From assembly GCF_964204645.1 (NCBI RefSeq), contig NC_134029.1, positions 12,736,850 through 12,800,849 of the forward strand: 64,000 nucleotides of DNA. Reading direction: 5' to 3'. Under the pieces are notes generated by a model. It had not been told where the DNA came from. It saw only the letters and a list, made by a program, of their open reading frames with translations, and searched no databases. This document shows positions 264-54,553 of the stretch, piece after piece. The position numbers were made by a program, and so were the translations under genes. The stretch comes from Tubulanus polymorphus (Eukaryota > Animalia > Nemertea). The first letter of the stretch is position 1, and the number at the start of each line of letters is the position of its first letter.

Positions 264-457
264 AGTAATAGGGGTTTAGTTGTTTCATACCAAAGGTCGA
301 GAGGTCGAGAAATTTTCCAAATGTGAAAATAACAATAATTTCTACTTGAATTAGTCGCGTACACTCCTAATTCAAGTAGAAATTATTGTTATTTTCACAT
401 TTGGAAAATTTATCAACCTCTCAACCTTTGATATGAAACAACTAAACCCCTATTACT
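264..457. repeat. 194-bp imperfect palindrome (fold-back) at the terminus of element A
   Basis: AGTAATAGGGGTTTAGTTGTTTCATA...CTACTTGAATTAG / CTAATTCAAGTAG...TATGAAACAACTAAACCCCTATTACT, apex at ~353-368; mirrored at ~29920..30109. Confidence 0.95.
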
Positions 458-554
458 CTATCTAATCACAAGTCTCATAATTTACAAGCCTCAACACGTT
501 GAGTATTGCATATTACATGTTGATTCTAGAACCATCCATCTAGAAAACTACATT

Positions 555-770
555 AGCCAATCACAGTTGAGTATTACTCTAGCCAATCACAGTTGAGTAT
601 TTCCAGCCAATCACAGTTGAATATTCCCTATTACTCTATCCAATCACAGTTGAGTATTTCCAGCCAATCACAGTTGAGTATTTTACTATTAATCTATCCA
701 ATCACAGTTGAGTATTACTCTATCCAATCACAGTTGAGTATTCCCTTACACTTGCCAATCACAAGCCTCA
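555..770 (+). repeat. Tandem array of 8 CCAATCAC(AGTTGAGTATT) units
   Basis: CCAATCACAG repeated with ~23-34 bp spacing; mirrored at ~29635..29822 and 12312-12320. Confidence 0.92.
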
Positions 771-883
771 TAATTTACAAGTCTCAACACGCAGCTGGGT
801 TTTCCCCACTGTTGAGTAGTATAAATAGGCGGGACTCACACGTGGTTGGACTCACAGGTGGCGGGACGCGTTGAGAGGTAAGT
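555..883 (+). promoter_or_regulatory. Putative RNA Pol II promoter and leader exon inside the A TIR
   Basis: CCAAT array, TATAAATA 820-827, GGCGGG 828-833 and 860-865, CACGTG 839-844, consensus 5' splice site GAG|GTAAGT 878-883. Confidence 0.55.
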
Positions 884-919
884 GTTATGTTCAATTTTAA
901 TAAAAAATTTGATATTAAA

Positions 920-3900
920 ATGGAAGCAAATAAGTACTACTGTTCAACATGTAATATCAATATAGATAAATCCCAAAAAGCAAGACACAATAGAACTAAA
1001 ACACATTTAGAGAATAAATTGAAATTAGAATATGAAGATGATATATTAGAAACTAAATTAGATGAATTAAAGAATGAAAAAGAAACTTATAAATGTGATA
1101 CATGTAATCAATCATTCAGTGATAAAAGATATTATAAAGAACATTTAAAATCTAAAAGTCATTTTAGAAATAAGAATAATGATATTTTAGGTGAAGATTA
1201 TTTTGATGAAGATAATGATAAGAAACAGAAGACAATTAAAAGCATAAAAAATAAATTAAACAATAAAAGACCATACATGGAAGATGTAAGAAATTATATT
1301 AATTCATTAGATAATAAAAAAGATATTGAGATAACCGAAGCATTTAAAAGTGATATTGGCCCAGCAGCTATCGAGTTTAAATTTCATAAAGGAAAAACAT
1401 TAGAAGAAAATAAAAAACATTTAGAAAATATGAAAGAAATAATAAAAATGATTACAGATGTTGAATATCCTAAAATAAGTATATCAGTTAAAGTAAAGTT
1501 TATAAAATCTGAAGATAAACCAATATATAATATAAATTCTCATTCACAACATATTATATCTAAACAACATATAGATGATAAATTAGATAAATGTTATAAT
1601 GAAGTAAAAACTAAAATAGAAGAGAAATATTTTGAAGGATCTGGTTTAATATTTGATGAAATAATATTTATGACTTTACATGTTTATAACACAAAATATA
1701 ATAAGTTAACTAAATCAAAACCAATAGATGAAAATAATGTATCATATTATAAAGAACCAGATATTGAAGCATCGAGTTATATCAAACTACCATTTAAAAC
1801 TAATGCTGTTATAAACGTACAAAATGAAGATAATAAATGTTTTCTATGGGCTATAATAAGTTGTATACATCCAACAGAAGATATTACACATAGTTTTAGA
1901 TTAACTCATTATAAACCATTTGAAAATAATTATAAGATAGATAAGTATCCTGTTATAATTAAAGACATCCCAAAAATAGAAAGAGATAATAATTTAAGAA
2001 TAAATGTATTTGATTTAATTAAATTACCAAATACAAAAGGCAACAACATAAAACATTATACATTATAACCTTTATATCTATCAAAAGATTATGATTCAAA
2101 GGATGTTATAGATATATTATATTATGAGAATCATTATATGTGGATAAAACGTATTGATTTATTTTTCAAATCAGAAAATGATTTTGATAATAAAATATAT
2201 CTATGTAGAAAATGTATAACTAAATTCAGAACTGAAAGTGCATTATTAAATCATAAACAATTATGTGAAAATCATGATTATTGTAAATTAGTTTTACCAA
2301 ATGAAAAAGATAAAATATTAGAATTCAAAAAATATGATTACAAAAATAAAGTACCATTTGTTATATATGGAGATTTTGAATCATTAAATAAAGAACTAAC
2401 TGATCAAGATAGAAAAGAAATATATTATAAAAGAAAGAAATTAAATTTTAATGAAAATGATTTTTCAGATGAACCACCAAAAACAAATACTATTAAATAG
2501 ATTCATCAATCAGCTGCAGCTTTCGGGTTATATATTAAATCTGATTATCCAGAACTAATTGAAAGTGAATATTATGATTATAGAAATGAAAATGTTATCA
2601 ATCATTTTTGTGACTTATTAATTGAATATGAATTAAGATTTAGTAAATTATTAAATACAAATATAGAAATTATAATGACAGAAGAAGATAAAGAAGAATT
2701 TGTGTTTTCAGGTAAATGTTATTATTGTGAAAAGATATTTAATTATAAAGATAAAAAAGTAAGAGACCATGATCATTTGAATGGAAAGTTTAGAGGCGCT
2801 GCACATGAGAATTGTAACTTACAAGCTAAGAAAATTAATTTTGTACCAGTTATATTTCATAATCTATCTGGATATGATGCACATTTATTTATCAAACAGT
2901 TATGTCATAAAATAGAAGAAATTAATAATGAAATAGAAATATTAAATTCAAATAGATCAAAAGATAAAATACCAACTTATAAATTTAGAATGTTAGCTAA
3001 AACATCTGAGAATTATATATCATTCCAATTTGGTTGCCTCAGATTTATAGATTCATATAGATTTTTAAATAGTTCATTAGATAACTTATCAAAATCATTA
3101 GTTGATGATGAATTAAGAATATTAAAGCAACACTACCCAAATAATGATGATTTTCAATTAATGAGATATAAAGGTGCAATTCCATATTCATTTTATAAAT
3201 CACATAATGATTTCAATATAACTGAATTATTGAAAGAGCAATTCTATGATGAATTAAAAAATGAATATGTTAAAGATAAAGTATATAATAGAACATTGAA
3301 TATTTGGAATCATTTCAAAATAGAAAATCATGGGCAATTAGTAGATTTATATTTAAAATCAGATGTATTATTATTAACCGATATATTCGAAAGGTTTAGA
3401 GATGTAAACCTAAAATATTTCAATATTGATCCTTGTCATTGTTATTCATCACCAGGATTAACATGGGATTGTGGATTAAAATTTACAAAAATAAAAATGG
3501 ATTTGTTAACAAATATAGATCAATTACTATTATTTGAAAAATCTATAAGAGGAGGTGTTTCAGGTGTATTAGGTGATAGATATTTCAATGTAAATGATAA
3601 CCCCGGATATAAGTTATTATATATAGATGCAAATAATTTGTATGGTTGGGCAATGATGGAACCACAACCTTATGGAGTATTTGAATTACCTGAAGTTTTA
3701 CAGAATGAAAATAATGTTAAATTTGATTGGAAGAAAAGAATTCTAGATATTGCAGATGATTCAGATACTGGTTACTTCTTTGTTGTAGATTTAGAATATC
3801 CTGAACATATTAAATTTAAATCTAGAAATCTAGCTTACTGCCCCGAACATAAAACTGTAACTCATGAAGAATTATCAAGTTATCAAAAAAGAATTAAACC

Positions 3901-3978
3901 TGAAAATCATATTCATACAGAAAAGTTAATGGTAACTCAAGAAGATAAATATAATTATGTAGTACATTATAGAATGTT
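920..3978 (+). pseudogene. polB: Protein-primed family B DNA polymerase of element A (nonsense stops, 3'-truncated)
   Basis: ORFs 887-2068, 2138-2500 and 2675-4018 are in one frame and nearly identical to the B polymerase; YGDFES, DHDH..G.FRG..H..CN and YIDANNLYGWAM present; breaks off after VHYRML. Confidence 0.95.
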
Positions 3979-5341
3979 ACAGATACAATTGTTAACGAAT
4001 TATTACCAACAGTTGTAATAGATGAAATTGATTCAGAAGGTGTTGTAGAACAAATTTTTAAAGATGACCCATATTTCACGAATAATTTAGAATTTAAAAA
4101 TGATTCATGGTATTATAATGTTAATTTAAATAACAAAATTGTATCAATTCAATTATCTAAAATGGTTCAAGAAAATATTTTTGAACCTGAAATGTTAGCA
4201 AGATCTACAATTGAACGTTCAAAAGGTGGCGCAGAATTTCTCAGAATTATATGGATTGCAGTCGATAGAATAAATGAAGAAGAACCAATTCCTAATATTG
4301 ATATAAACAAATATTCACCATTTAAAAATCCAAATTCAAATCCTACTGATTTTGATCCAGAATTGGAAGAGAATAGAAATCGATTAGATAGATTAAGATC
4401 TTCAACACCCGAAACATCGAGAAGAGACACTCAACAAATTGATAATTATTCAAGTCAATTACAATTAACATTAGAAAAACAAATTGATAGATTAAGTGAT
4501 TCAGAAGAAGAAATGAATAGTACTGGAATAAATCGACTGCGATACTGGAAAAGGATTTCTTAATTTAACTGATGAAGAAATAGAAACATTTCCTGAACAA
4601 ATACGTAGAGAAATTAAAGGTATACAAGTATCATCTGATGAAATTGCTAATATTAAGATGAGATTTTCTAAAATAACCATGTTAGAAAAAGAATTAGTTA
4701 ATGCAGATGAAGAATTAAAACAATTAGAATTAAATAGAGATCATCAAGTAGTTTATGAAGCTGATTATGAAAGCAGAAAGTTAGCTTTAGTAAAAGAAAT
4801 AGATGATTTAGAATATAACATAAAATTACAAAAAGAAGAAAGAGATATATTATTAAAATCATATGATCTTAATCATATTAAAAAATTAAAAGTTATTTTT
4901 AAAGATTTGTTGATAAAACCAGATTCTGAAATATCATTGAAAGATAGAATAAAGTTATTATTTAAATTAGAAGGAATAACAATTCTTTCAATTCTAACAG
5001 CTGTAACTATGTTATTTACAACAATTGGTTTAGCTATATCAAATGCTTTAAAATCTACTCCTACTCCCACTCCTAACAAACCGGATAAACCCCCAGGTAA
5101 TAATTCTATACAAGATAAACTTAAAGATGGTTTAAAGAAATTAGCAAAATATTTATGGGAACTATCAAAGAAATCTGCTGCAGCTTTACCAGGAATTATT
5201 GCATCAATTGTTGGTTTTATATTGAAATCTGCAGGAAACATTATTAACTTTGCTGCTGAACATATTATTTTATTTTTAATTACAGTTGTAAGTGCTATTA
5301 TTTTTGGATTAGTAAACATGATATCAAAAAATATCAAGTAA
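3979..5341 (+). pseudogene. 5'-truncated homolog of B 20732..22448 (acidic/coiled-coil membrane protein)
   Basis: Sequence from ACAGATACAATTGTTAACG matches B from ~21062; ORFs 4162-4563 and 4658-5341, the latter with two hydrophobic regions. Confidence 0.85.
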
Positions 5342-5381
5342 CCATGATCAAAAATAAATAATTAATTTTTTTGTTAAATAA

Positions 5382-6588
5382 ATGAGTGGGAGTTATATCA
5401 ATCCTTCTAAGAATCATAGAATATCTGATGCTATTAAAGCAGAAAGATCACATCGTATAATTACTCATAACCCTTCAAATATTAATCCCGATGAAACTTT
5501 ATACGTTAGAATCCCTCGATTAACACATTATAAAAGTAATCGGTAATAATAATAATTATGTTGTTGATAATGTTGGAAGATATTTGATTAAAAAGTTAAC
5601 AATAAAGATTGGTCCAGAAACAGTTTTCTCATTAGATGATTATAATTTATTTATGCATTATAAAGATTTATGGTTAACTAAAGAAAATAGAAATAATATG
5701 ATATTTCAAGGCATCCAATCAGAAAACCAAAATAAATTAAGATCAGAAGCTAATAGCGCAATATTAACTAATGCTGTAGATAAATTGATAAAAAGTATAT
5801 ATGGAAGCAAATATAAAATTCCATTAGACTTTGAATTGATAAATAATAATGCACCTTTATATAAATACGCAATTCAAGAAGACGTTATATTCGAAATAAC
5901 ATTTGCTCCTGTAAATGAAATTGTATTATCTAGCGTTAATAAAGATATGAGTTATAAATTATCGAATATATGTTTAGAATATGATACAGTAACTGATGAA
6001 AATTTTTCAAGTATAATTCAAACTCAATACAATCAAGGATTTTCATTATTATATGATTATATTGATAAATTTAAAACCGTAACTATTAATGCAAATGATG
6101 AAATAATTAATGAGAATATTAACTTCCCAAGAAGATCTATTAAAGGTATATTAATATTTTTTACCATTGCAACATATACTAATGGCGCAATAAATGTTGA
6201 TAATTATTATAATCCTGAAATAACAAAAGTAGAAATAACTATCGAAGGAATAGCAAATAAAATATTTTGTCAAGGAATGAGAATGATTGATCAATGGCCA
6301 GAAATTAGAAAACATTTTATGAATGAAAAAGTGAAATCATCTGAAAATTGTAACATTAATCAAATTGATTATTATACCGGCAATAAATATGCATTATGGT
6401 TAGATTTTAGAACAACAGAGGATAATTCATTACATGGTTCTGGAAAAAAACTACAGAACACTAAAGATGGAATACAATTATTCATGACAAAGAATAAAGG
6501 AATCAAAAATTTTAAAATGCACATTTATATTATATCTGACGCGCAATTAAATATTGTAAATTCTCAATTAAATAGTGTTATGTATTAA
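5382..6588 (+). pseudogene. Putative double jelly-roll major capsid protein of A (frameshifting deletion at ~5527)
   Basis: TAAATG start at 5382; homologous to B 22494..23741; KYALWLDFRTTEDNSLHGSG; size and position fit a polinton MCP. Confidence 0.75.
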
Positions 6589-6620
6589 AATTTTAACTTT
6601 AATAAAAAATCTTATATTAA

Positions 6621-7784
6621 ATGGAAGGTGGTAAAGTATATAAACATATTCCATACATCGATACACATGAAAATAATGATGGTTTATATTATGTAATACC
6701 TTTTAATATAGCTTTGATATTTGATCCTATTTTCAAAATTTATAAAACTAAACTAATAGAAATCGATAATAATAAAAGTGAAGTTGTTGATAATTTAAGT
6801 AATGTAATTGATAATAATGTAATACCTTCTACATCTAATAATATAATACCTACTACATCTAATAATGATAAGATTGAACCTGATATCAAAACCAAAAAGA
6901 CAAATGAAAAATATTGTGATGTATGTAAGAAATATATATCATATAAAAATTGGGCATCACATAAGAAATCAAATAAACATATAGAAAAAGAAAAGAATAA
7001 TAATGATAATAATATATCTGATAATAATATAATAGATAATATCATAGATAATGTTAATACAATTGAAACAAATGATACCATAGATAATATAACAGATAAT
7101 GTTAATACAATTGAAACAAATGATACCATAGATAATATAACAGATAATGTTGATACAATTGAAACTAATGATAATGAAACAATTGATGATTCTAAAAAAC
7201 ATTGTAACATTTGTAATTTAGATATTTCTAAAAGTAATTTTTCTAAACATAAAAAATCTCAAGCGCATATAGAAAATGAAAAGAAATTAGAAGAAATAGA
7301 AAGAAATAAAATGTGTCAATATTGTAATAAGAAAATTGAACCTGTTGATGAAAATACTCATTATAAATCAAAGTTACATCTAATTAATGTTTATAAAATG
7401 GTGAGTATGATACCATTGTTAAATAACCCAAATAAATATATCAGATATTTTAATCCTAAAACTAACCAATATTATATATTCTATAAGTTGTTATTTGATA
7501 AATTATTAGCTTATGCAGAAGATAATCCTAAACAAATATATAAATTGTTATATTTAAGAAAAATAGATTTAAATTATCTGATAACTAATTTTGGATATCA
7601 TTTTGATTTTGATTATGATGATTTTGATGAATACTTAGAAAAATTAAGAGAAAAAGCTAATTTACCTACTAATAATTATGTTAAGATGGCTCAATTAAAA
7701 TTAATAAATCTACCTAAGACTTTTGGTGAATTAGATATAAACAGAGATGATTTTATAAATATATTAGAAACAAAATTAGAATAA
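6621..7784 (+). CDS. C2H2-type (C-x2-C-x9-H-x5-H) zinc-finger protein with Asn/Asp/Thr repeats
   Basis: CDVC..H..H, CNIC..H..H, CQYC..H..H; 51-bp tandem repeat (DNVNTIETNDTIDNIT); TAAATG start. Confidence 0.85.
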   Translation: MEGGKVYKHIPYIDTHENNDGLYYVIPFNIALIFDPIFKIYKTKLIEIDNNKSEVVDNLSNVIDNNVIPSTSNNIIPTTSNNDKIEPDIKTKKTNEKYCDVCKKYISYKNWASHKKSNKHIEKEKNNNDNNISDNNIIDNIIDNVNTIETNDTIDNITDNVNTIETNDTIDNITDNVDTIETNDNETIDDSKKHCNICNLDISKSNFSKHKKSQAHIENEKKLEEIERNKMCQYCNKKIEPVDENTHYKSKLHLINVYKMVSMIPLLNNPNKYIRYFNPKTNQYYIFYKLLFDKLLAYAEDNPKQIYKLLYLRKIDLNYLITNFGYHFDFDYDDFDEYLEKLREKANLPTNNYVKMAQLKLINLPKTFGELDINRDDFINILETKLE

Positions 7785-8185
7785 TTATTATAAAACTAAT
7801 TTATATAACTTTATACTAGACGTACGTAAGAATTCTTACCAAAATTCTTACTTTCTTACTTTCTTGGCAAGAATCTTACTTTCTTGTACGTCTAGTACAT
7901 AGATATATAATTTAGTTTTCATAAAAATTAAAAACATAAAATTATTAATCTAAGTATAGAAATAGTTATAATATAATCTATTTTTATTTTTATTAAGAGA
8001 AAACATATAATTTATTCATTTTTATAATTTAAATTTAGAATAATTATTATAAAACTAATTTATATATCTATATACTAGACGTACGTAAGAATTCTTACCA
8101 AGATTCTTACTTTCTTGGCAAGAATCTTACTTTCTTACTCGTACGTCTAGTACATAGATATATAAATTAGTTTCTATAATATTCC
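7775..8185. terminator. Two tandem ~140-bp hairpin units between convergent gene blocks (putative 3'-end signal or origin)
   Basis: ACTAGACGTAC...GTACGTCTAGT inverted repeats enclosing CTTACTTT repeats, present twice. Confidence 0.45.
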
Positions 8186-8197
8186 AAATTATAAATT

Positions 8198-8809
8198 TTA
8201 TTTTATAAATTTATATTCATATGGAAATTGTAGTCTCAGTAATAATTTTGAACCTTTATTATTCTTTAATTTATTCATATATTCATCGTGTAATTCAGTA
8301 GGTATAATTTGATTTTCTTCCAATGATTGTTGCATAGATTTTTTATCTTTGTTATAAAATAAAACTAGAAATCTAATGTTTTCTCTAAAGTCTTTAACAA
8401 TTGAATTATATTTTTGATTTAAAACCCAAGTTGTTATCCCAAAATGTTTCCCAGAGAAAGCTAGATAACATAACTCACTTTCTCTAACTTTTGAATCATG
8501 TAAATTTGCGCAATCATCTATAATGAATAATGTATTTGATCCTTTATAAGTATCAATTGCTATTTTTATACAATTATCTAAATTTTCTTTTACTGTTTTA
8601 GGATCTAATATAATAAACTTTTTCATCTTAACTATATCTCTACTATATGTTTTATTCATTTCATAAGTAGGACAGAATAATATTATATTATCAAAATGAT
8701 TCTTATAAATAGTTTCTAACAAGTCTAATATGAAATGTGTTTTACCACAATTGGTTACTCCAGTTATTAACATATTATGCGGTTCAAATATAAATAAATC
8801 TTTATTCAT
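8198..8809 (-). CDS. A32/FtsK-like genome-packaging ATPase (element A)
   Basis: Walker A GVTNCGKT, Walker B FIIDD; GKH here where B and C have GRH, so possibly defective; LNQKY. Confidence 0.92.
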   Translation of the reverse strand: MNKDLFIFEPHNMLITGVTNCGKTHFILDLLETIYKNHFDNIILFCPTYEMNKTYSRDIVKMKKFIILDPKTVKENLDNCIKIAIDTYKGSNTLFIIDDCANLHDSKVRESELCYLAFSGKHFGITTWVLNQKYNSIVKDFRENIRFLVLFYNKDKKSMQQSLEENQIIPTELHDEYMNKLKNNKGSKLLLRLQFPYEYKFIK

Positions 8810-9914
8810 TTATTCTTTTAATTTTACTAGATAAAATCCATTCATTAAATTTATCATCATATCCTTTATATTTCACCAAAGAATACTTTTTTCCTTTAAG
8901 AGTTTTTGTTTTCAATACTTTTTCTATTTTGTATTCTATTTCATCTGGATTTGGTACAAGTGATAATTCTTGTTCATAGAAATAACCTAATATTTCTTCA
9001 TCTTTTAAATCTTCTAATTTATAAACAAAAGGTTTAGTTAATATTATCTTTTTAATCTTGAATATTTCTTCTGTAAAATTTGGGGTATAACCTTTATAAA
9101 AGGTTTTTCTACATTTAGATATTCTTACGTGTTGTCATATTTTAAATCTAGGTTCACCGAAATCATGTGTAACAAACGCACCATATAAATTATTCCAAAC
9201 TATTTCTGAATTATCTTCTTTTCTAGCTTATATAGGTTTCATATTTATAGAACTATGTTTAGAATTATTATAACCTTTCACTAAATCATCTAACACATCG
9301 ATATATTTATATGTTTCATTAGCAGTAAAATATTTCCACATTCTAGTTTTCAATGTTTTATTAAATCTTTCTATAATAGATGCTTTTTTATCTGAGTGTG
9401 TTGAAAAATACTCTACATCGTTATCAGATAATAGTTTTTTAAAATGTTTGTTATAAAATTCCTTACCTTCATCAAATTGTATCTTATCTGGAATAGCTTC
9501 TTTAAATATTGATTTAAAAGCATTTGTAACTTCTATACCAGTTTTATTTTTGATTGGAATTGACCATGCATATCTACTGAATATATCTATAACATTTAAT
9601 ATCCAGAAATATCCTTTGTTGTATTCTTCTAAGTTCTTCATGTCAATTAAATCTGCTTGCCATTGTTGATCGATATATGAAACCATAACTTTTCTTGTTA
9701 AATAAGTTTTATCCATTTTCTTGTGGATTTGATATGTTGGTTGATTTTGTAACCATGATTTTAATTCACTATATTTTATATTGCCATGTGGGTGCCGTAC
9801 GGCACCATTTTCATTATCAGATTTAATTTTATTCCATAATTCTGAAACGTTAGAATATGATACTTCACTTTCTAGGTTATAATATAAATCTCTTAAATAT
9901 TGTTCTTTTTTCAT
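8806..9914 (-). pseudogene. Retroviral-type (rve) integrase with C-terminal chromodomain (element A, internal stops)
   Basis: WQADLID, IQFDEGKEF, IERFNKTLK; continues past stops at ~9228 and ~9135 to YKIEKVL...VKYKGYDDKFNEWI. Confidence 0.93.
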
Positions 9915-9920
9915 CTTATT

Positions 9921-10280
9921 TTAATCCATTAATATTAATCTTGGTTTATTTTCAATGACTTTATCATTTGACTTATTTGGTATGATAGGTTTGTTGTTAT
10001 TGGAATCATTATTGTTATCATCAGATTTGAATTTTGATTTATATATTACACCGGAGAATATAATAATTGTGATTAACCCAATTGTAATATATAAGTAATT
10101 ATTTCTTCCACTATTAGAAGAATCAGATGGATTATTATTTGAATCAATATCAGGTGATTCATTTATATCAGTTAATTTCTTTTTCTTAGCTTTTTTTAAT
10201 TCTGCAGATCTTTTACCTAATTCTCTTGCCCATTTAATTTGTTTCTCGGATCTAGCCTTTTTCTTAACGCTATCACTCAT
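9921..10280 (-). CDS. Small basic single-TM protein
   Basis: Lys/Arg-rich N-terminus plus one hydrophobic helix; homologs in B (27069..27452) and C (33800..34168). Confidence 0.8.
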   Translation of the reverse strand: MSDSVKKKARSEKQIKWARELGKRSAELKKAKKKKLTDINESPDIDSNNNPSDSSNSGRNNYLYITIGLITIIIFSGVIYKSKFKSDDNNNDSNNNKPIIPNKSNDKVIENKPRLILMD

Positions 10281-10875
10281 TTATTTTAGTTAATTTTTGT
10301 TCTGATTCATTTTCTGTTTCGCTGTTTGGTTGTAGTACATCTGTTTCGTTCTTACCTGATTTATATTCCATAGGCTTGATGTTCGAAAATGTTATGACGC
10401 CAGTAGAAATTAATGTCATAACCGATCCTAATTGAAATGAAGCATATCCAACCCATTTTTGTAATTCAGTCATAACTAAGTAGTCATTTTTCAAATCACT
10501 ATATAATTTATTTTCATCATCAATTGGTATTAACTGGTTACATAACTTAGAATAACATTTGACAATACCATTCGAAATAGAATCATTTATTTTAGATAAT
10601 CTTGCCTCTTCATAAATCTTAAAATATTTTATTACTTTATCGGGTTTCATAGCATCTAATTCTTGAAAAGTAATAGTCTTAGTTAAAAACTCTTTAGTTT
10701 TTCCACCGGCAATCAATAGTTCTAGATGATGCTTACAATATAAATAGTATTCATAATCTATATTGTTATTAACTTGAATAGAATTAGAAACAACTGTATC
10801 TTTATTATCACTAATACCTTAATCATCTAATGTTTTTTCAATATCAATACTATTCTTATTAGATTTCTTTGACAT
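10273..10875 (-). pseudogene. Conserved hypothetical protein (homolog of the B 194-aa ORF), internal stop
   Basis: TAAATG start at 10875, TAA at ~10820, remainder is ORF 10273-10716. Confidence 0.8.
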
Positions 10876-11124
10876 TTATATTAGAGAAAAAAAGCAAAAA
10901 AAATATTATAAGTATTCTTCAAATGATACTAGATAGTTAAAGTTAAAGAACTCTAGTATTGACTACTGATACTAGCTATTTGAATTTAAAGAATTTCTAT
11001 TCGGATCTATTCAAAATATAAAGTATTCTCTTTTTGAAAAGAAAATATTAAAAATATAATAGAATTCACTGGTTAGTTGAAGTTGTGTAATTGTTAATAT
11101 TTTTTATTTGAGATATATTAATCT

Positions 11125-11794
11125 TTAACCACTCATTAAAGACTCAACGTATTGTTCATTATTTGGATCATTGTTCCATTGATCAATAAATTTCTTTGCC
11201 TTTGTTAACTGTTCTAAATATAACTGTAAATCTAGTTTATTAGATTTAATTATGTTTTCCTTTCTTTTCTAAAGGTCTTAAATTCTTCCAATTCCAAATA
11301 AGTTTTTTATTGTATTCATCATTCATGTTGAATTTAGATATTGGTAACACGTGATCAATATGGTAATAATCCCCATAATTATCTATATTCATTTTATCAT
11401 CGAATTGATATATTATCCATGATTTGAGAAATTCATCTGAACAACCCAACAAATTAGATAGTGTTTCTGAATGTGTTTCTTTGTTGAATAATTGTGTTAA
11501 TCTAGTCCTTAAGCATTGTTTCAATCTAAAATTAAGATCTGTTTGATATCTTTCTCTCATATATTCTGCCATATAATAATTATAATGTTCTATATTACCT
11601 TCTCGATATTGTTTGGTATATAGTTTAGTACAAGTTTTACAACAATATTGAAAACCATCTTTGCTAATCTTACGCTTACTAAATTCTGTTGAAGCTAATT
11701 TATCTAATTCACATTTAGAACACTTCTTGTAGTATATGTTTATAACACCAGTGTTATTTGTAATATTGATAGTTTGTGGTTGTTCTGGTTCCAT
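11125..11794 (-). pseudogene. HNH endonuclease with N-terminal Cys4 zinc module (element A, frameshift near 3' end)
   Basis: CSKC...CKTC, HIDHVLP, WKNLRPL; homolog of B 28279..28941. Confidence 0.85.
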
Positions 11795-43171: not shown

Positions 43172-43174
43172 TTA

Positions 43175-43520: not shown

Positions 43521-43536
43521 TTATATAGTGAAAAAA

Positions 43537-44307
43537 TTACTCTTTACATCTTATAACTAATTCATAAATTACAGGAAAGTTATTCAAATCAATTAAATAA
43601 CCATTATGATTTCTTATTTCTAATTTAAAATTATTGAAATGTGGAATACAAGGTTTAAAATCACATTCAGCTAAATTATAATTTACTTGCGTTCCAAATT
43701 CTTTAACATTCTTCAATGGTAAAATGTTTAGTAAACCAGAATTACAAATTGTATCTTTAGTTGCTTCAAATGTTTTTGTTGGGTCAATTAAATTGCAATA
43801 AATATAAAAATGTGTAAAAGGTATTAAGTTTGATTTACCTTCTGCGTATGCTGTAACAATATCTGGGTTAATTCCTAACAGTTTACCTAAAGGTTTTCTT
43901 ACTGTAAATTTAAATTGTTCATTGTTAAATTGGTCATTAGCTAACCTAATCTTTATTTTATTAGAACTAGCACTTTTTAAAATTCTAATACTAAATCCGG
44001 AATCACTTCCTAATTTAACTCGAGCTTTTCTATTAATTTCTTGTGCTAATGTATCTAAATTATATAATCCTGGTTTTAAATATATACAAAACCATTTTTT
44101 CCTTTTTTTGTAAAAGATTGGAAAAATTAAATGTTCTAGACTTTTATCCGATATATTGTAAAATGAGTTACATAAACTTATATTTACTAATTTCAAATCT
44201 ACACAATTCTTAAATTCTATATCTAATTGTATTAATAAATTATGAGATTTATAATTTGTAAGTCTTCTAGAATCAACAAATATTCTGTATTCTTTTAATT
44301 CTGCCAT
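43537..44307 (-). CDS. Putative minor capsid (penton) protein (C)
   Basis: Termini nearly identical to B 17070..17825, variable centre. Confidence 0.8.
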   Translation of the reverse strand: MAELKEYRIFVDSRRLTNYKSHNLLIQLDIEFKNCVDLKLVNISLCNSFYNISDKSLEHLIFPIFYKKRKKWFCIYLKPGLYNLDTLAQEINRKARVKLGSDSGFSIRILKSASSNKIKIRLANDQFNNEQFKFTVRKPLGKLLGINPDIVTAYAEGKSNLIPFTHFYIYCNLIDPTKTFEATKDTICNSGLLNILPLKNVKEFGTQVNYNLAECDFKPCIPHFNNFKLEIRNHNGYLIDLNNFPVIYELVIRCKE

Positions 44308-44374
44308 TATTTATAACATAAAAAAATTACACTCATCACTAAAAATTAATTTTAATAAAATTTTTCCTAAATAA

Positions 44375-47300
44375 ATGGATGAGAAGATAGCATGCGAAAT
44401 TTGTGGTGAACTTCTAAGAAAAAGTAATATGGCTCGACATATGAAAAAACATGATGAAAATTATAAACCCCCTAAACTAAACTGCCCAAAATATAATAAA
44501 TTATTCTCAAGAAATTATGTTAAAAAACATTCAGAGAAGTGTAAAATTAATGGCGCAACGGCTAATGTTGATAGTAATGAAAGTAATAGTAATTCTGTTG
44601 AAGTTGAACCTGAAGGTATTTGGAAAAGACCTTTCTTATTCTATGATAAGGATGATATAAAAGATCATTTCTGTGAGCCTTGTCAAGTAAAATATAGACC
44701 TGAATATATAGAAGATAGGGAGAATCATCAATTTCGTAAAGCACATATAGATAAAATTTCTAATAAATTTGAAACTGAATTCAATGAAAGAAAAAATAAT
44801 TTATTAGAAAAAATAAAATATGAGAAAACGTTACCAGATAATAAAGAAACAGTTGAAAAGTTAGAAAAACAATATAATGAATTAACAAGAAAAACATATT
44901 ATTGTAAATATTGTAAATTGATTATTACAACAAGTAATTCAAATCTACATAATAGAACAATAAAACATAAAGAAAACGTAAGAAAATACCAATGAGCTTA
45001 ATGAAGATCTGTTACCAATAAATTATAAACGAAAATGTCCACAATGTAGTTATGCGACCTTAAGACAAGAAGGTACTGTGTTATTTTGTAATGAATGTGG
45101 ATGGCAAAAGAATTTATGGAGTGAAGAAAAAACTAGAAATTTTCTCATAGATCCAAAATTAAATTATCTAGATGAAATTTTTAAAATATTTTCTATAGAA
45201 GATCATACACCAGAATATATGCAATGGCTTGAAAAAATGAAAATAATAGAAAATAACAAGAGCTCCAAGGGGCACAATGGCCAGCCTGTCAGATTTGCTT
45301 TTTATAAATGATGTATTCTGTTTGTTATATTTATCAATATACACTCCCTGCTCAATATCATTTACATAGTAAAATCGTGTGTTAACACAGACAGCAGGAA
45401 CGAATGTAATATAGAAATACGAAGTTATTGTATTGTTCAACGCCCCCTGGTGGCCATATACAAAAACCAATGAGCTTGAAACTCACCAAGATCATAGACC
45501 ATGTCATGAGCTACAACTTTCCAATTGATTGTGGTAGCAAAATATGCATAGGTACGAATGTAATATAGAAATACTAAGTTATTGTATTGTTCAACGCCCC
45601 CTGGTGGCCATAAACAAAAACCAATGAGCTTGAAACTCACCTCGATCATAGGACGTCATGAGCTACAACTTTCCAATTGATTATAGTAGCAAAATATGCT
45701 TAAGTATCAATTATGATGTGGAAAAACTTTTTTCCACCTACGAATGAGTACTGATGACTCCAAGATGGCCGCCAAGTGCGTCGTAATTGCCTGGTCAAAA
45801 ATACCCTCTCGGATATAAAAGATCCCTTTCCAAAGAATACCCATTACAAATTGCAATGAAACATGGCACACCATTAGAAAGCTACAGTACTCAGAATTCA
45901 GGCCAAAATTGACATTTTTGGGAACAAAAAAGGTCACAGTACAGCCATCTTGAGTCCGATCGACCCAATTTTTCTCATGCCGATGGGCCCTTGGGGGATA
46001 CAAATATATAGGAATGATCAAGGTTATTGATAAAAGTGTCTTCAAAATTTCCCTCGAAAACTTCAAAAATGTGTAAAAATTGCTGATTTTGGCGAACAAC
46101 AATGGCTGCCAGTCGGCCATCTTGTATCTGACAGGGCCAGTTTTTGGCCTGAAGATGTGTCTAGGGTAGATACACGTATAAACCAAATATCAAGACATTA
46201 CCTTGAAGCCTCTTCAAAACTTTGGAACTCTCACGAACTATCTAGATGGTTATCTCTCGACCTCAATAGCTTCAAGACCCATCTCAAAACAACTTTGTTC
46301 CATGCAGCATACCATTAACTCTCGGAAAGCGAATTGTATTTAACATTTTTTTGGCAGAATAAAATTTGATTGAATTTGCAATATGGGCACATGGCTAATT
46401 AGCATATCAAGGTCATACACCCGATTTGGTAAAACCATTTTTTTCGCGAACCTTGCGCAATTGTCAAGGATGAATTTTCTGTAGAGCAAATAAAAATTCC
46501 TCCCAAACACCAAATCAACTAAAGATTTCATAGAAATCGATCTTGAAATACAATTTTAAATCTTAAAATAAAACCCGGAAGTAAAACAGTAGACGATACC
46601 GCGGGTTCACGTGAACACCTGATTTCTGTAAACGAAATGTTGGTTGTGACAAAATTGTTCAGACGGTTTTAGGTGGTAATAAGTACGGAAACGTAACGAC
46701 CATGGTCGACTTATTCGATGAAATCAGGCCTATGTGATATCCAAATTTTGACTTTTTTATTCTCCAGACCTCCCTGATATAGAAATAAAAAATTTTGGTG
46801 GTACGAAAGTGCAATCACAGCGCCGACGGGGACAGAGCCGTGTCAGAGATCGGCGGAATGAAAATTGAGGTGGACGAACACGAAGAAGTAGGCTATTGCG
46901 CTACTTGAATCACGAAAACTCCTGGCGCGGCCCCGACGCTTTTCGTGGATTAAGTAATACAAATATCATGCAATGGGTTTTCACAATCTACCGCTGCCGT
47001 ATTTACCGGATTTCAATATCACTCCAAAATTCAAAGAAACCTCGAAATATCGAACCGGAACACTTCCGGTAGATATCCGCGGCTGCCCAACCGGGAAACT
47101 TATTTGTTTCAACAGATGTTGATAGGATCCATCATCTTCACGCGTCAAGGGATTCGAACCCACTAAGCTAAAGCCAGAATCGGGTCGGGCCAATCACAGC
47201 GCTTGTAACAAACCACATTAGGCTTCTGTGGAATTTCCCAGTAAATGGGCCAATCAGCGAACACGTAGCGAACGCGGAAGTATTGTCGCGAGTTGATACA

Positions 47301-48077
47301 TGACGTCATGCGCAAAAGCGCCAGTAATGAAATCGCGATAATTCACGTGAACAGCTGCTGATATTTTCAGATAAACCAATCACAGGGAAGGCACAACTTC
47401 CTGATTGGCTGATAAAAATTGAAATTTTCCCGATTTAACTTTCGTGAAAAATGCAGAAAACATTTTTATGAGACCCTATTTCAAAATTCTGCTCGCTACG
47501 ATTCCGAGAATGTATTACGCTTAAATACGTGATTTGTTCGAATATGCCCTCACTTGGCAAGCAAAAGAGCCTTTTGTGTGGAAACCATGTCATTTAAATT
47601 CGCTCCATTTGTATAGTAATAGGCTCAGCCTACGGTTGGCCTAAAAATGGTGAAATAACTAAAAAAGATATTATAAAAACAATTATTCCGTCAACATTTA
47701 ACACAAAACAAAAGAAAATGTATTTATATTTATTATTTAACGATTATTATGAAAAACCTAAATTAACAAAAGAAGATATGAAAAATATAAAAAAAATATT
47801 CAAACAAATATTAATGTATCATTTGGAAAATAGAATAACAGATTCAATAAATTATGAATTCTTTTTAAATAAGATTGTAAATTATTTAAACCTAGATATT
47901 ATAATTCCATTTGATGAATTAACAAACAAAAAGAAACAAAGAGAGCGAGATGAAATGTGGAACAAGATAGAACTTTATTTAAATAAGAAAAATGAAATGG
48001 AAGAACCTAAACAATTAAATGAAAATGAAGAAGCCAATAGTGATTTCGAGTATGATGATATTGATTTTATGTTTTAA
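44375..48077 (+). pseudogene. Zinc-finger region followed by a poxvirus A2L/VLTF3-like late transcription factor, split by a frame break (~44990) and a HINE insertion
   Basis: CPQC-x13-CNEC ribbon, KTRNFLIDPKLNYLDEIF; after the insertion [46 protein letters not shown]. Collinear with my recollection of vaccinia A2 ([54 protein letters not shown]). Confidence 0.8.
45255..47645 (-). mobile_element. Helentron/HINE-like insertion (~2.4 kb, possibly composite)
   Basis: Minus-strand 5' TTTTTAGGCCAACCGTAGGCTGAGCCT and 3' ...GCCCCTTGGAGCTCTTGTT; inserted in an A/T run; internal ~162-bp tandem repeat at 45400-45700. Confidence 0.7.
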
Positions 48078-48529
48078 TAACCATAAGGTAATGTTTTTAT
48101 ACCATCATCTGAAATATGTCTTTTATCATCAAATGGATTTAAACTAGTTTTTTCAACTTCATTAATGTACATTTCATGATCTTCTGATCTTAAACAATTC
48201 ATTTTGTGTTTCATTACAATTGAGTTATATAAACACTTTATATAATCTTTAAATTCTATATGTTTATCAACCACATGTTTTGTTATTCCTTTTAACTTTT
48301 TAGCTTCATGATCTTTTGTTCTATAACTATACATTTTACTTCTTATCCCAACAAATTCAATCATTTCATCACCCCCTAATTCATCTTTAAATTTACCAGG
48401 AATCTTTTTATTATCATTGCTAAATAGTTCATGATCTTTGGGATAATTGCTAAAATCAAAATGATGTTTTAATGTTTTTAAGTCTTTTGTTATGTCATTT
48501 GTCTTGATTTTTAGTATGTAACTGTCAGT

Positions 48530-49592
48530 ATTTTTGGCAATTAATGGAAATCCACAGTTAAATGTACTATCTTCAGTTGATAAATCATAAACATAATCTG
48601 ATGGGTTATATATTTCAAATAAATCTTTAACTTCTTCTGTTAATTCTTTTTCTACATGCCTTAAATTAAAACAATTTTAGATTTAATTAATTCTATATTC
48701 ATATTAAATCCTAATGAACTGCATAATATATGTAATCCTGATATAGCAACTTTTCCTTTCTGTGCAAAGGTTATCTTTTTATCCTTTGTAAATTTTTTAG
48801 TGCCATCTGCGTCATAGAATCCAATGAAGAACCACTTTCTTAAATTATTATTTGCATTTAATACATAATCTGGAACTATCTTTTCTTTTGTTGAAGTATT
48901 ACTTTTCACTATTGCATGAATATAGAATTCATCATTATATTTTATAGCAAAATCTTTAGGATTATTTATAAGTATTCTATAAACTGCTGATGATTTCATA
49001 ACATCCATGATCCTAAATGTTTTATGTGAATAAACTTCTTCAAAGAATTTCTTAATTCTTTCTAATAATTTTAAGTCTTGATTGCATAAATACCAACAAT
49101 ATTTATTATCCCAAACATAATTATACACACCTGCTGAACCATCACCCATGAAAAATCCTTTGATAAAATATTCTTTTTCTTCTAATGTTTCGGGTTCTAT
49201 ATTATAAATATTATCAATTATTTCATCAAATGACATATGATTCATTCTTTGGAAAAATCTTTTATGTAATAATTCATCTCCAATTTTTATATCAGTTGGT
49301 TTTATTTCATCGCCATTTCGTTTAATTAAACTATGATCTTCTGTAACATCTACAAATCCTAATTTAGTTCTAACTCTATATAGATTTTCTTATTTGTTTT
49401 ATGCCTAATAATATTCTTTAATTTTTTCCATCCATTTCTTGTCCAAACATCCATTAAACCATTTATTTGTATTAATTCTTTTTCACCATATGAAATATAA
49501 CATTCATTTTGTTTTGGAATTATTTCTGAAATTCTTCTTATCAATATTTTATTATTACATTTTAATAATATTGGGGTGTCAGCTGTAACAGA
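48530..49592 (-). other. Intein (~354 codons, frameshifted) with LAGLIDADG homing endonuclease in the PolB active-site motif YFD|TDS
   Basis: Block A SVTADTPILL, block B VDVTEDHSL, YFIKGFFMGDGS and WFFIGFYDADGT, blocks F/G YVYDLSTED..FNCG..LIAKN|TDS. Confidence 0.93.
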
Positions 49593-52460
49593 ATCAAAAT
49601 ATAATATTTCAATATGCTTTTCCCCAAAAAGTGGTTGTAAAACATTATAATAAAAATCATACATTAATAATTTAGTGATACTTCTAAAACAGTTGAACCA
49701 ATGAATATAGGTTTATTAAATTTCATTGACGTTCTTTTTAATTTAACTGCTGTTAAATAATCTTCAAATCTTTTATTTCCTAAATATCTAGGACTTGATT
49801 GTAAATGTCTTAATCTTTCAGAATTATTTACTAATTCAATATCATTTCTATTTCTAATATTTTCACATGTTTTACCATAAAAACTATTGTTCATTAATTT
49901 GAAGAAATCTTTTTCAAAATCTGTTTTTGATATGGTTCTCTGTTGAGTATTGAAATCTATATATTTTTCTAACCACTTCGATTGATTAAATTCAATATAT
50001 CTATGTACTTTCTTTAATTTCATTCCTTGTTTTAGATAAAATTTTAACATTCTATAATGAACAATATAATTATATTTATTATTTTGAGTAAGTATTAATT
50101 TTTCTGTAAAAACATGATCTTTCGGTTTTATTTTCTTCTGGTATTCACTTAAATAACTATCATCTACAGTTAAATGTTCTGGGCAATAAGGTAGGTTTTA
50201 AACTTTATATTTTCAGGATATTCTAAATCAACTACAAAGAAATAACCAATTGGTGCTTCATCTTTTAAACTCGCAATTGCGCTTTCCCAATCAGTTTTAT
50301 CATCATTTTCAACTTCTGTTAATATAAAATTTTTATATGGTTGAGGTTGCATCATTGCCCAACCATATAAATTATTGGCGTCAATACATAATAATTTATA
50401 TTCATCATTTGCTTTAAAATACCTCTCCCATAACACCACTAATTCCACCTCTAATTGATTTTTCAAATAATAAAACCATATCTGGTTCTTTTAATAAATC
50501 TAATTCTACATTTGTATATTTTAAACCACATTGCCAGGTTAAACCAGGACTAGAGTAGCAATAACAAGGATCATCATTAAAATGATTCAAATTAACTTCT
50601 CTAAATTTTTCAAATATGTCAGCCAATATCATAACATCTGATTTTAAATATAAATCAACTAATTCACCATGATTTTTCATCTTAAAATGGTGCCAAATAT
50701 TTAATGTTCTATTAAACACTTCATCTTTCACATACTCCTCTTTTAATTGATCATAAAATTGATCTTTTAATAATTCTGTTACATTAAAATCATTGTGTGT
50801 TTTATAAAATGAATAAGGAATTGCACCTTTATATCTCAATAATTTAAAATCTTGTTCATTTGGATAATAATATCGAGTTATAACAAAATCATTATCAACT
50901 AAACTTTTTGATAAATTATCTAATGAACTTGCTAGAAATCTATAAGAATCTAAAAATCTAATGCAACCAAATTGAAATGAAATATAATTTTCAGATGTTT
51001 TAGCTAATAGTTTAAAATCATATTTTCTTACATTTACACCATTCATAGCATTATATTCTTCTATTTCTTGATTAATTGTGCCCAATTTCTTTGATAATTG
51101 TTTTATAAATAGATGGGTATCATAGCCTGATAAATTATGAAATAACATTGGTACGAAATTAACTTTCTTAGCTTGTAAATTGCAACCTTCATGAGCAGCT
51201 CCACGATATTTTGAATTTAAATGATCATGATCTCTAACTTTTTTATCAAATGAATAAAAACGTTTTTCACAATAACAACAATGAGTTGCATAATTAAAAT
51301 CAATTTCATCTTCTTTTGTCATAACTATTCTTTTATGTTTGTTTAATAATTTTGCAAAATCACTTTCTAATTCAATCATTTTATCACAAAAATCATTAAC
51401 TACATTTTCACCTCTAAAAGAAATATATTGACTTTCATATAATTCAGGATAATTTGATTTTATATAAATTCCATAAGCAGCAGCTCTTTGATGAACTTTT
51501 TTAATTGTATTTATAATTGGTGGGTCTTGTATTGTGTCTTCATTTAATTCATTTCCTTTATCCATTGATTTTAATAATTGCTTTTTGTTATATATTTCTT
51601 TTCTATCTTGATCAGTTAATTCTTTATTCAACGATTCAAAATCCCCATAAATTACAAATGGAACAATATTTTTAAATTTATGATTAGTAAATTTCAATTT
51701 ATAATCTTTTTCTGTTGGCATTATTAATTTACAAAAATTATTATTATCACATAATTCTTTATGTTTTAATAATGTATTCTCAGTCATAAATTTAGATAAA
51801 CATTTTCTACATAGATAAATTTTATTATGGTGATCACTTTCTGTTCTAAAGAATAAATCAATTTGTTTTAACCACATATAATGTTCATTTTCATCTTTTT
51901 TGTAATATAACAAATCTATAGCATTTTCATCATCATAATATTCTGTTAAATATAAAGCTTCCAATGTATAATCTTTAATATTTTCACCTTTTGTCTTTGG
52001 TAATTGCATTAATTCAAATACATTTATTTTTAAATTATTAACTTTTTCTATTTTAGGAATCATTTTTATAGTTACTGGATATTGATCAATTTTATATAAT
52101 GTTTCATATTTCCGGTAATTTGTTATTCTACAAACATTTTCCTGTGTTGGATGTAAGCAACTTATAATTGACCATAGAAAACATTTATTATCTTCATTTT
52201 GAATATTTATTACTGCTTTTGTTGTAAATGGTAATTTAATATAAGATGATGCTTTAATATCCTTTTCTATTGTAAAGTTTGAATCATTTTTAAACATTTT
52301 ATTACTTTTTGATGTTTTATTTCTTTTTGTATTGTAAACATTTAAATCGAAATATATAATTTCATTCAATGTTAAGCCAGAACCCTCAAAATATCTTTCT
52401 TCAATATGACGTTTAAATTCATTAAATATTTTTTCTAACTTCTCTTTTATTTGTGTTTTT

Positions 52461-53650
52461 GATGGGTTTCGTCGTCAGACGAACCCATCTATGGCATCGT
52501 CGTCATGTCTGTCTGTCTGTGGATGTTTCTTTATGACACGTGTGGACCGACACTGTAATTTCACACAGGTATTCTCTACTTGATGTAGATGGTGCAGCTT
52601 GGTTTATATTTGATTCCGATGGTAATAAGTGCTCTAATTTGGTTAAAAGATAATTAACGTTACTCGCTAGTTCGAGCCGCTGTATAGCGCGTTGCTACGA
52701 CGACGCTCGATCAACATATTGGTACTCGCTGTGTAATACTGAACACGTATATACCTGTAGATATTGATCGTACTAGCACCGGTTTTAGATAGTGCGCGCG
52801 CTGATCGGTCTTAACACTTCTCGGAACTGCTGTGCTAAATGCTGAGAGGCCGAATCTATGCGCAATCATTTATTGGGCTCGTCACATTTGATAGTGAATG
52901 GATAAATAACCGGTGTCAATGACGGTCGCTACTCCCCATCAGTATAACTCATCAGTATAAGAAATAATTCTTTGAGTTTTTTTTTTCAATCCCCGAAGTT
53001 TTTGTTACTATGTTGACCTCGCCGTTTTATAAGCTTACCGATGATTCTTCTAGTATTTTCAGGGTCACAAGACATGACGAAGTTTTGTACAAATTTCACG
53101 AAACAAACAATTATTTAGGCGGCACCTGATCTATTGATTAATTATGATAAATAATGTTTATTTCATTAAAAATTTGTTTTTTTCAAACACTACTTTCATC
53201 GCACACAGCGTGATCGGCCCTACTATTCTACGGCAGGCCATGGACTCTTTCATGTGGTAGACCTATTACAAATGATACAACCCGCGCGTCCGTGAATAAG
53301 TGACACGTGGTGGGGCGGGTTGTGAGGAGCATCGAAACTAATCCGTCACAAATAATAGATAGAAAACAATACCTTAAGAGGTTAACTTTTATTAACATCA
53401 TTACCAAATCAAAACCTGCACATCCTATCATAAATAGAAATTCTAAGAATTTATTTCAAAGAATAATAAATTACGTCTAAATATTGGGATTCGAACTCGT
53501 AGCATCGATTCAGGTGCCTTTCCCAAAGCGGGTATCCCGCGGGGAAAACCCATTACTATTTATATCGAGAATCGCCTTTTTGACAGCGAGTTCGGTGAAT
53601 GAAACAGAAACAATTACACAGAAACCCATCATGGAAAGTTTCTTTCTGGT
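52461..53650 (+). mobile_element. DINE-1/HINE-like non-autonomous Helentron inside C polB
   Basis: T-run target; 5' hairpin GATGGGTTTCGTC-gtca-GACGAACCCATC; (GTCT)n; subterminal GAAACCCATC at ~53621; interrupts EEIIS|KTQIKEKL. Confidence 0.8.
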
Positions 53651-54553
53651 TGAAATTATTTCTTCAGAGTGTGTTTGAATATTATAATTCATTTTTTCTT
53701 CTGACTTTATAAAACTTACTTTCCCAGAGATACTAATTTTTGGATATTCAACATCTGTTATCAAATCTAGTATTTTTTCTATTATTTCATAAAATGTACT
53801 ATAATCTTCTATTGTTGTACCTTTAAAAAATCTAAATATAATAGCTGCAGGACCAATTTTACTATGTAATGTTTCTAAAATTTCAATTGTATCTTTTATT
53901 TCTAGTGAATCAATATAATTTCTAACATTTTCCATGTAAGGTTTATTTGAAATGGATTTAGTTTTTGAAGTTGTTTTTTTTACTTTTTGAGGTTTATCAT
54001 CAAAATAATCTTTTCCTAAAACATTATTACTCAAATTTTGATGGTGTTTTTCTGTTTCGAGATGTCTATTATAATTCCTTTTTGTTATAAATTCATCACA
54101 AACTTCACATTTTATTTCATCCACATTCATATTTTCTAATCTTTCTTTTCTTTCATTGGAATTTTCTGGAGTTTTAAAATCTATTACATTTTTTATATGA
54201 TTTGCAGTTTTTTCATGTCGTGATTTTTGGGATTTATCGATGTATTTTTTACAATATTGGCAAAATTATTGATTTTTATTAACATTATTGTTTTCTGGCT
54301 GTTGTTCATTTTCCCCCATTTATTAGGGAAAAAAATTACTTGTGGTGATGAGTGGTGTCTGGACCTTCGACCTCTGATCTGAAAGCCTACTTTTCCAATT
54401 ACTCATTTGCAATGAGACCGAAATATGTTTGAACTGCGCAATGAAATCTTTCGTTGCGATAAATTCTTAAGTAAACTCCTTGAATGAAATAAATTGTTGG
54501 AATTAACAATAATAAGGGCAGGCAGGAATTAATACTAATATAACGTTACTTAC

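Follow-up and report, generated by a model that had tools for sequence, protein, structure and literature searches.

Organisation of the three elements

The window analysed here is a stretch of 64,000 nucleotides (nt) from Tubulanus polymorphus (NC_134029.1, positions 12,736,850-12,800,849, assembly GCF_964204645.1). It contains three decayed polintons, designated A, B and C, whose genes mostly start at the sequence T-N8-TAAATG. From this signal and the other features described below we consider it probable that the elements, like virophages, relied on a co-infecting virus of poxvirus type for RNA polymerase and late factors. Self-comparison of the window and inspection of the ends showed that all three are integrated, each with terminal inverted repeats (TIRs) and an exact 6-bp target-site duplication.

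264..30109: polinton A; duplication TGCAGT at 258-263 and 30110-30115; TIR arms identical at 479/489 and 278/283 positions; internally deleted and decayed
12326..29619: polinton B; duplication GCTAGT; TIRs identical at 444/462 positions; near-complete gene set, several genes broken
33228..54403: polinton C; duplication CATTTG; short TIRs, identical at 91/103 positions
~41043-42183, ~45261-47639 and ~52456-53619: insertions into C, of higher GC content and host type

The TIRs begin with AGT, the exact AG start having been lost at one end of C, and those of C finish in a TAAATG start at either end. B is nested within the right terminal repeat of A. In the DNA run X7 (1.9 Gb read) 109 reads connect position 12319 to 29620, which corresponds to an A-type repeat without B. 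Depth in this run was 280-880 in most bins over the right part of A and B, and the ends of B were joined to many unlike flanks; the polinton family is therefore multi-copy. Contigs of two runs from the same species, one of which we guessed to be RNA, gave next to no cover of 11500-30500, which is not evidence about expression. GC content is approximately 20-26% inside the elements and 30-48% in the flanks. None of the copies is undamaged: in A the end of the polymerase gene pPolB is missing together with seven neighbouring genes, the capsid, ATPase and integrase genes of B each contain breaks, and C has many frame breaks in addition to its three later insertions. The original prediction, made from the sequence alone, had described three AT-rich, intron-less, integrated polintons. 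Their number, integration and AT richness stand; the nesting of B in A and the damage to every copy have to be added, and 'intron-less' is uncertain for A, whose terminal repeat bears a splice-donor-like site.

The host flank at 54546-55106 and 60300-62300 contained an open reading frame (ORF) with an Nrf1 DNA-binding domain (E 6e-12) and the remains of a long terminal repeat (LTR) retrotransposon (Integrase_H2C2), which we take to be BEL/Pao-like. On this basis the host is likely an animal.

Gene content and polinton membership

The genes of the three elements are arranged as follows; two features of C are listed further below.

887..3978, plus strand: pPolB of A (DNA_pol_B_2, E 3e-12), in several frames, shortened by the internal deletion and 94% alike to that of B
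5382..11794: gene block of A with a broken major capsid gene, a zinc-finger gene, an A32 ATPase gene, a broken rve integrase gene, two small genes and an HNH-like gene
12659..16684, plus strand: pPolB of B, open over 1341 aa, with an endonuclease VII domain as well as zinc fingers, start TAAAATG
16713..22448, plus strand: run of eight genes in B with gaps of 0-24 nt, every start TAAATG
22494..23741, plus strand: major capsid gene of B, double jelly-roll (DJR), with one interrupting stop
23774..28941: right block of B with a zinc-finger gene (plus strand) and genes for A32 ATPase and rve integrase, two small genes and an HNH-like gene (minus strand)
48074..54319, minus strand: pPolB of C, in pieces, 71% identical to that of B over 298 columns

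A Pfam profile scan of 54 ORFs of the window recovered pPolB, the rve integrase (E 6e-10 and 7e-9) and the A32 ATPase (Pox_A32, E 1e-10 to 1e-11) across the elements. It recovered no RNA polymerase family from these ORFs, in agreement with the original prediction. The pPolB of B was 33-44% identical to 24 of 25 related pPolBs and 25% identical to the remaining one. The eight-gene run of B includes a weakly SLATT-like gene, and 17070-17825 is likely a minor capsid gene. HNH genes had also been claimed for A and B. HNH-like genes are indeed present in both, but the match of the A gene to HNH_4 (E 0.0086) fell below the cut-off, as did an HNH match of a relative's copy (E 0.0055), and the gene of B had no Pfam HNH match.

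The capsid gene encodes a product of 415 aa, and the copy of B is 74% identical to an intact relative, P0002. The model of P0002 (pLDDT 87.5) aligned with the PBCV-1 capsid with a Z score of 27.3 and a root-mean-square deviation of 3.2 over 346 residues; in this ranking the virophages Sputnik (Z 18.6) and mavirus (Z 17.4) both came below the nucleocytovirus capsids. At the sequence level P0002 had no match in Pfam and none to a virophage capsid family, whereas locus L041 matches Sputnik_MCP. Nor did the capsid match by sequence PF21738 (DJR-like_dom), a family recovered at E 7e-56 from L046, a locus of classical Maverick type, or the Maverick-like capsid of L046 itself, or any solved structure. 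Scans of viral contigs and genome contigs with the capsid and the ATPase found no relative. An adenain-type cysteine protease was found neither among the 54 ORFs nor with two related-locus queries against six frames of the window and of the close relative L001; a very divergent protease is possible.

The elements are polintons in the broad sense, having pPolB, rve with a 6-bp duplication, TIRs, a DJR capsid and an A32 ATPase. They share with Maverick groups 1 and 2 (adintoviruses; PMC8502044; 10.64898/2026.06.19.733378) a pPolB with endonuclease VII, rve, the A32 ATPase, a DJR capsid, terminal repeats and 6-bp duplications, as far as these groups are covered in the available parts of the two sources. 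They differ in the missing DJR-like_dom match, in the protease, of which none was found, and in their gene starts, which are mostly AAAATG in classical polinton loci. The lineage appears to belong neither to the classical Mavericks nor to the virophage class.

Two groups of capsid relatives were observed in other contexts. P0058-P0119 form a related group (37-42% identity) with many members per cluster, mostly on contigs of 0.1-4 Mb, and are therefore integrated in some other large genome. The P0009 cluster (55% identity) comes from contigs of less than 2 kb in several Bartonella assemblies, where its members are listed as hypothetical proteins; these are likely eukaryotic or viral carry-over.

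The TAAATG start signal

Nearly all genes had been claimed to start at TAAATG, and counting bore this out: the motif is present at 33 of the 38 gene starts in the window, at 96/1748 non-start ATGs and at 4/215 ATGs in an AT-rich context. All 38 belong to three related copies, and for broken genes the start was assigned by homology when the list of TAAATG sites was already known; the ATPase of C, whose start codon is not intact, was excluded. A wider sample was obtained with the capsid profile, which retrieved 23 metagenomic loci. Starts in relatives were counted mechanically, without curation, for ORFs of at least 100 codons. In the clade, represented by 13 non-redundant loci with a GC content of 20-44% and capsids as little as 52% identical, TAAATG opened 47 of 55 starts, compared with 13/241 in 24 other pPolB polinton or virophage loci, 5/88 in 16 giant-virus loci and 13/35 in two entomopoxvirus-type stretches. 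None of nine starts in a sister clade of three loci (L015, L016 and L018) had the motif. The upstream sequence of this sister clade is TATAG-rich, and it possibly uses a different helper or the host polymerase. Five decayed loci (L019-L023; 0/5 starts) were excluded from the comparison, and L002 and L012 were dropped as near-duplicates from the start counts, the upstream T profile and the capsid tree. In this quickly made tree the 12 TAAATG rows fell on one side of a branch with an SH-aLRT value of 99, with two sister rows outside.

The signal extends beyond the hexamer. A T stands nine bases before TAAAT at 62/66 starts, compared with 31% of 74 non-start TAAATG sites, and distant subclades alone gave 22/23, so that the overall layout is T-N8-TAAATG. 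Vaccinia late promoters are similarly described as having TAAAT(G) on the start codon and, in a run rich in T, one conserved T 'at the 10th nucleotide upstream' (PMC11980589, in the part available). The likeness suggests that helper-type late promoters precede the genes of the elements. The motif opposes the usual eukaryotic start context because it removes the purine at -3, which was found at 8/55 clade starts and at 175/241 starts of other polintons. By eye, the pPolB genes of A and B start instead at TAAAATG behind a run of As; these are two near-identical copies, and they may reflect a split between late-like and intermediate-like promoters.

It might be thought that TAAATG is a by-product of AT richness, of a Kozak-like context, of stop-start coupling or of overlap with an upstream AATAAA poly(A) signal. 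Element DNA is indeed 75-80% AT, and 22 of 51 starts read AATAAATG. Nevertheless, where the upstream DNA of the other polintons is at least 85% AT only 9/107 starts carry the motif, and the clade keeps it at a GC content of 44% in L006, as does the distant polinton L043 at 38%. Divergent starts, where no gene lies upstream on the same strand, have TAAATG in 20 of 22 cases. A further 20 of the 51 starts read TATAAATG, the stop codon of the upstream gene is the TAA of the motif in one case only, and none of these effects would fix a T at -9. We find this explanation hardly credible.

A separate observation concerns L043 (positions 1-9034, GC 38%). All seven of its starts are TAAATG, with a T at -9 in four of them; its pPolB is 35% identical, and it encodes a protease-like/integrase/chromodomain fusion. 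A pPolB tree made by a quick method, with 12 of 21 inner branches open, neither placed it with the window elements nor spoke against that position, and it is possibly a second lineage with the same wiring. Three further loci retrieved with the L043 ATPase had 2/26 TAAATG starts.

The VLTF3 fusion gene

Two features of C bear on the kind of virus with which these polintons were in contact.

44375..48077, plus strand: zinc-finger/zinc-ribbon/VLTF3 (poxvirus A2-like) fusion gene of C, broken by a frame change near 44992 and by a 2.4-kb insertion
~48530..49592, minus strand: LAGLIDADG intein in the pPolB of C, between YFD and TDS of the polymerase motif, in three frames

The original prediction named an A2L/VLTF3-like factor. 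The match is real, and it passed the profile search proposed as a check: 47598-48074 matched Pfam PF04947 (Pox_VLTF3) at E 3e-6 with 27.5 bits, above the cut-off of 25. It is however the tail of a broken zinc-finger fusion gene, which is co-linear with residues 10-521 of the intact 697-aa protein P0162. A scan of 1.84 billion representative proteins with the VLTF3 piece gave four matches, P0162, P0163, P0164 and P0165, and no non-pox nucleocytovirus at E values up to 0.001. The first three are led by zinc fingers, and the fusion gene is intact in relatives. P0162 begins as the last ORF of the polinton locus L001; the contigs of P0164 and of a capsid relative are both 12,994 bases long, which suggests that P0164 too is a polinton gene. 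The only match outside polintons, P0165, is a typical A2 consisting of zinc ribbon and VLTF3 domain and is 60-63% identical to named entomopoxvirus VLTF-3 proteins. The window piece is 38% identical to VLTF-3 of Betaentomopoxvirus amoorei over 74 aa. When ORFs from 41 kb of entomopoxvirus-type DNA were compared with the window and 19 related loci, only VLTF-3 found a match. In a fold search with the VLTF3 model the two best named matches were poxviral late factors, from a bat poxvirus at rank one (E 0.0097) and from an entomopoxvirus at rank three. A word-based search for longer VLTF3 relatives found none, and among solved structures none matched A2 by sequence or the VLTF3 model by fold. Judged by search matches and fold rank, the VLTF3 piece thus appears closest to poxvirus A2. 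It shares with vaccinia A2 (VLTF-3) the zinc ribbon and the VLTF3 domain, but here this predicted factor is fused behind C2H2-type fingers and belongs to a parasite without a polymerase of its own.

P0165 and P0169, two unnamed VLTF-3 proteins of entomopoxvirus type, lie on contigs of 9.4 and 38.9 kb and share 60-76% identity with one another or with named VLTF-3 proteins. Their sources are possibly undescribed poxviruses.

A helper might also be sought among cytoplasmic linear elements like yeast pGKL2, which has a poxvirus-related RNA polymerase and a TAAAN initiator. Initiation with slippage at TAAAN is described for 12 pGKL genes in the available part of PMC6211774, and these elements have pPolB and terminal repeats in common with the polintons. 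Upstream of the pGKL initiator, however, lies an element resembling the poxvirus early core and not a late-type T, and the VLTF3 piece resembles a late factor of the true poxvirus type. We know of no pGKL2-like element in animals and hold such a helper to be very improbable.

The intein

The claim that the polymerase of C harbours an intein of the large-DNA-virus type held: the insert matches LAGLIDADG_3 (E 3e-7) and has relatives in giant-virus PolB. It is of the Pol-c type, being inserted between YxD and TDS, starting with Ser, ending with Asn and containing a LAGLIDADG domain. Sixteen related loci were found on giant-virus-type contigs, 14 of them between YGD (in one case VGD) and TDS of an RNA-primed PolB and the other two in a topoisomerase-like gene. 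Identity to the giant-virus PolB inteins was 33-35%, the best value being 35%, and no solved structure matched the intein by sequence. The close relative L001 has a deoxynucleoside kinase gene at 10340-10981 (Pfam dNK, E 2e-31) with a TAAATG start. The intein and this kinase point to gene traffic with large DNA viruses, although the intein by itself suggests contact with nucleocytoviruses generally and not with poxviruses in particular.

This last point raises the question whether the helper was a different cytoplasmic large DNA virus with TAAATG late promoters, either an undescribed relative of pox- and asfarviruses or another nucleocytovirus. Besides the intein, which is closest to those of non-pox giant viruses, the TATAG-rich upstream pattern of the sister clade would fit, as if helpers had been switched, and promoters of egoviruses are undescribed in the accessible part of 10.1101/2024.03.23.586382. 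On the other hand, the available part of PMC5294985 assigns TAAAT(G/A) at the start codon to poxviruses. It gives different late motifs for asfarvirus, mimivirus and CroV, and for ranavirus it reports TAAAT only in the promoter of the DNA polymerase. The rarity of TAAATG in giant-virus loci (5/88) and the lack of any non-pox nucleocytovirus in the VLTF3 scan also argue against a helper of this kind, which we regard as unlikely.

Terminal palindromes and a Pol II-like cassette

The outer ends of A and B contain the following features.

264..457: terminal imperfect palindrome of A (194 nt), mirror copy at 29920-30109; DNA fold -85.3 kcal/mol, z -24.4
555..886, plus strand: cassette resembling an RNA polymerase II (Pol II) promoter in the terminal repeat of A, with eight CCAAT boxes, a TATA box and two GGCGGG motifs, the function being putative
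12326..12593: terminal imperfect palindrome of B (268 nt), mirror copy at 29352-29619; fold -99.6 kcal/mol, z -25

Long terminal fold-backs in two elements, an earlier claim, are thus present in A and B, with z values of about -24. Each palindrome repeats the end sequence of its element in inverted form. AGGTCGA repeats of the outer arm occur also in the short repeat of C; in the inner arm they are altered, and because the changes are present at both ends the mismatches look older than the insertion. The sequence AAAANTGAAAA had nine matches in the window compared with 3.5 expected (2/100 shuffles), and seven of the nine lie in the palindromes of B. The enrichment is weak since the palindrome copies of B are mirror images.

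In the cassette of A the TATA box is TATAAATAG at 820. The splice-donor-like sequence AGGTAAGT lies near 878, upstream of an ATG in frame with pPolB. RNCCAATCA had 25 matches compared with 5.7 expected, 15 of them in the repeats of A, and no such cassette was found in B and C. We read the cassette as a host Pol II promoter that may have been gained by the A type.

These signals agree with a further possibility, that the polintons are autonomous nuclear viruses whose own zinc-finger/VLTF3 protein steers host Pol II to TAAATG, as is thought for small VLTF3 viruses that lack a polymerase. Mriyaviruses and some clusters of polinton-like viruses (PLVs) carry VLTF3 in small genomes (10.64898/2026.06.19.733378, in the part available). 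The fusion gene is whole in relatives and has extra fingers of DNA-binding type, and transcription in the nucleus would avoid a transport problem. Against this, genes that are only 0-24 nt apart can hardly accommodate Pol II promoters and poly(A) signals between them, and B has a near-complete gene set yet no VLTF3. Moreover, no start context serves scanning ribosomes worse than a T at -3, except where a leader of As is added, and such a step is not known for Pol II. The addition of A leaders is described for the polymerases of poxviruses and of yeast virus-like elements in the available part of PMC6211774. We judge autonomy of this sort to be distinctly unlikely.

A proposed helper-dependent life cycle

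If the polintons depended on a poxvirus-type helper, as we think probable, a free copy, either from an incoming virion or released from the chromosome, would reach the cytoplasmic factory of the helper. There the helper polymerase would initiate in the AAA of TAAAT, slip and add a 5' poly(A) leader, which would place an A at -3. Poxvirus polymerase is described as starting in AAA and slipping to give messengers with A at this position (PMC6211774, in the part available). The zinc-finger/A2 fusion would likely draw late transcription to the element's own promoters. pPolB would copy the linear genome from its ends, the element would package it in its own capsid and the integrase would return copies to the germ line. 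Through the cassette of A, pPolB could be produced in the host nucleus even in the absence of a helper, which would offer a possible route out of the chromosome. By analogy with mavirus and the endogenous mavirus-like elements (EMALEs), the host might be protected; of the EMALEs only those with helper-like late promoters wake according to the accessible part of 10.1101/2025.10.09.676808.

With mavirus and the EMALEs of Cafeteria the window elements share pPolB, rve, terminal repeats, integration into the host and helper-type late promoters (same source, likewise in part). They differ in that the capsid is not of the virophage families, the motif is the poxvirus TAAATG and not the TCTA of CroV, no protease was found and the host is likely an animal. 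The entomopoxvirus-associated PLVs AHEV_PLV1/2, CBEV_PLV1 and Ca_PLV1 (Barth et al. 2024, PMC11296320, as far as available) are likewise small and AT-rich, with divergent capsids, a proposed poxvirus helper and gene exchange with poxviruses. Their genes include those for a cysteine protease and a mu-like core protein but none for rve; the window elements have rve, and no protease was found in them. The link to poxviruses is also of a different kind, namely co-purification in occlusion bodies for the PLVs and promoter layout together with an A2-like gene for the window elements. The main text of that paper, in the part available, mentions neither promoters nor TAAAT nor VLTF.

Several points weigh against a poxvirus-type helper. 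Neither a poxvirus helper nor any transcript or induction was observed, the support being likeness of sequence, and a provirus in the nucleus would somehow have to gain access to a polymerase in the cytoplasm. The terminal repeat of A bears the host Pol II-like signals described above, and in their present state A and B have no VLTF3 gene. The best fold match to A2 is weak (E 0.0097), with mimivirus and other VLTF3 proteins at E 0.3-1.2; the alignment behind the model contained entomopoxvirus rows, and a shared AT-driven composition may favour entomopoxviruses in the comparison. VLTF3 has also been reported in polintons and PLVs without a link to poxviruses (PMC11131425; 10.64898/2026.06.19.733378, both in part). 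The fixed T is the ninth base before the first T of the motif, and the tenth position given for vaccinia fits only if counted from the first A; furthermore, the entomopoxvirus control, in which promoter classes are mixed, has this T at only 9/15 TAAATG starts. Finally, the nearest relatives found for the intein belong to giant viruses other than poxviruses, where they lie in PolB and topoisomerase genes. The original prediction had already ascribed transcription to a pox-like virus: the clade-wide signal, the T at -9 and a VLTF3 closest to A2 strengthen this, whereas the intein, pointing to nucleocytoviruses generally, does not.

Tentatively, a bolder interpretation can be put forward, although we rate it somewhat short of probable. 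An old clade of animal polintons would consist of integrating virophages of true poxviruses; these virophages would carry poxvirus late promoters and a captured A2 factor, mark undiscovered poxviruses of invertebrates and wake when infection occurs as a heritable antiviral defence; L043 suggests that the wiring arose or spread more than once.

Significance

VLTF3 in polintons and PLVs associated with poxviruses were known before, and the promoter signal appears to be the new part. No report of poxvirus late promoters in polintons was found in a search of titles and abstract openings, whose coverage excluded most subscription papers. In the literature that was found, the sole link to poxviruses is co-purification with insect poxviruses. 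With a signal of 15 bases the question of the helper becomes testable, as reporters of late transcription are standard for vaccinia and poly(A) leaders at the 5' end can be read out clearly. If the proposed dependence is true, the virophage way of life extends to animals and poxviruses, and poxvirus-type viruses are predicted in hosts where none is known. The signal would then be a simple genomic marker for the type of helper, and on the bolder interpretation the context of the start codon could reveal the helper virus of any endogenous polinton.

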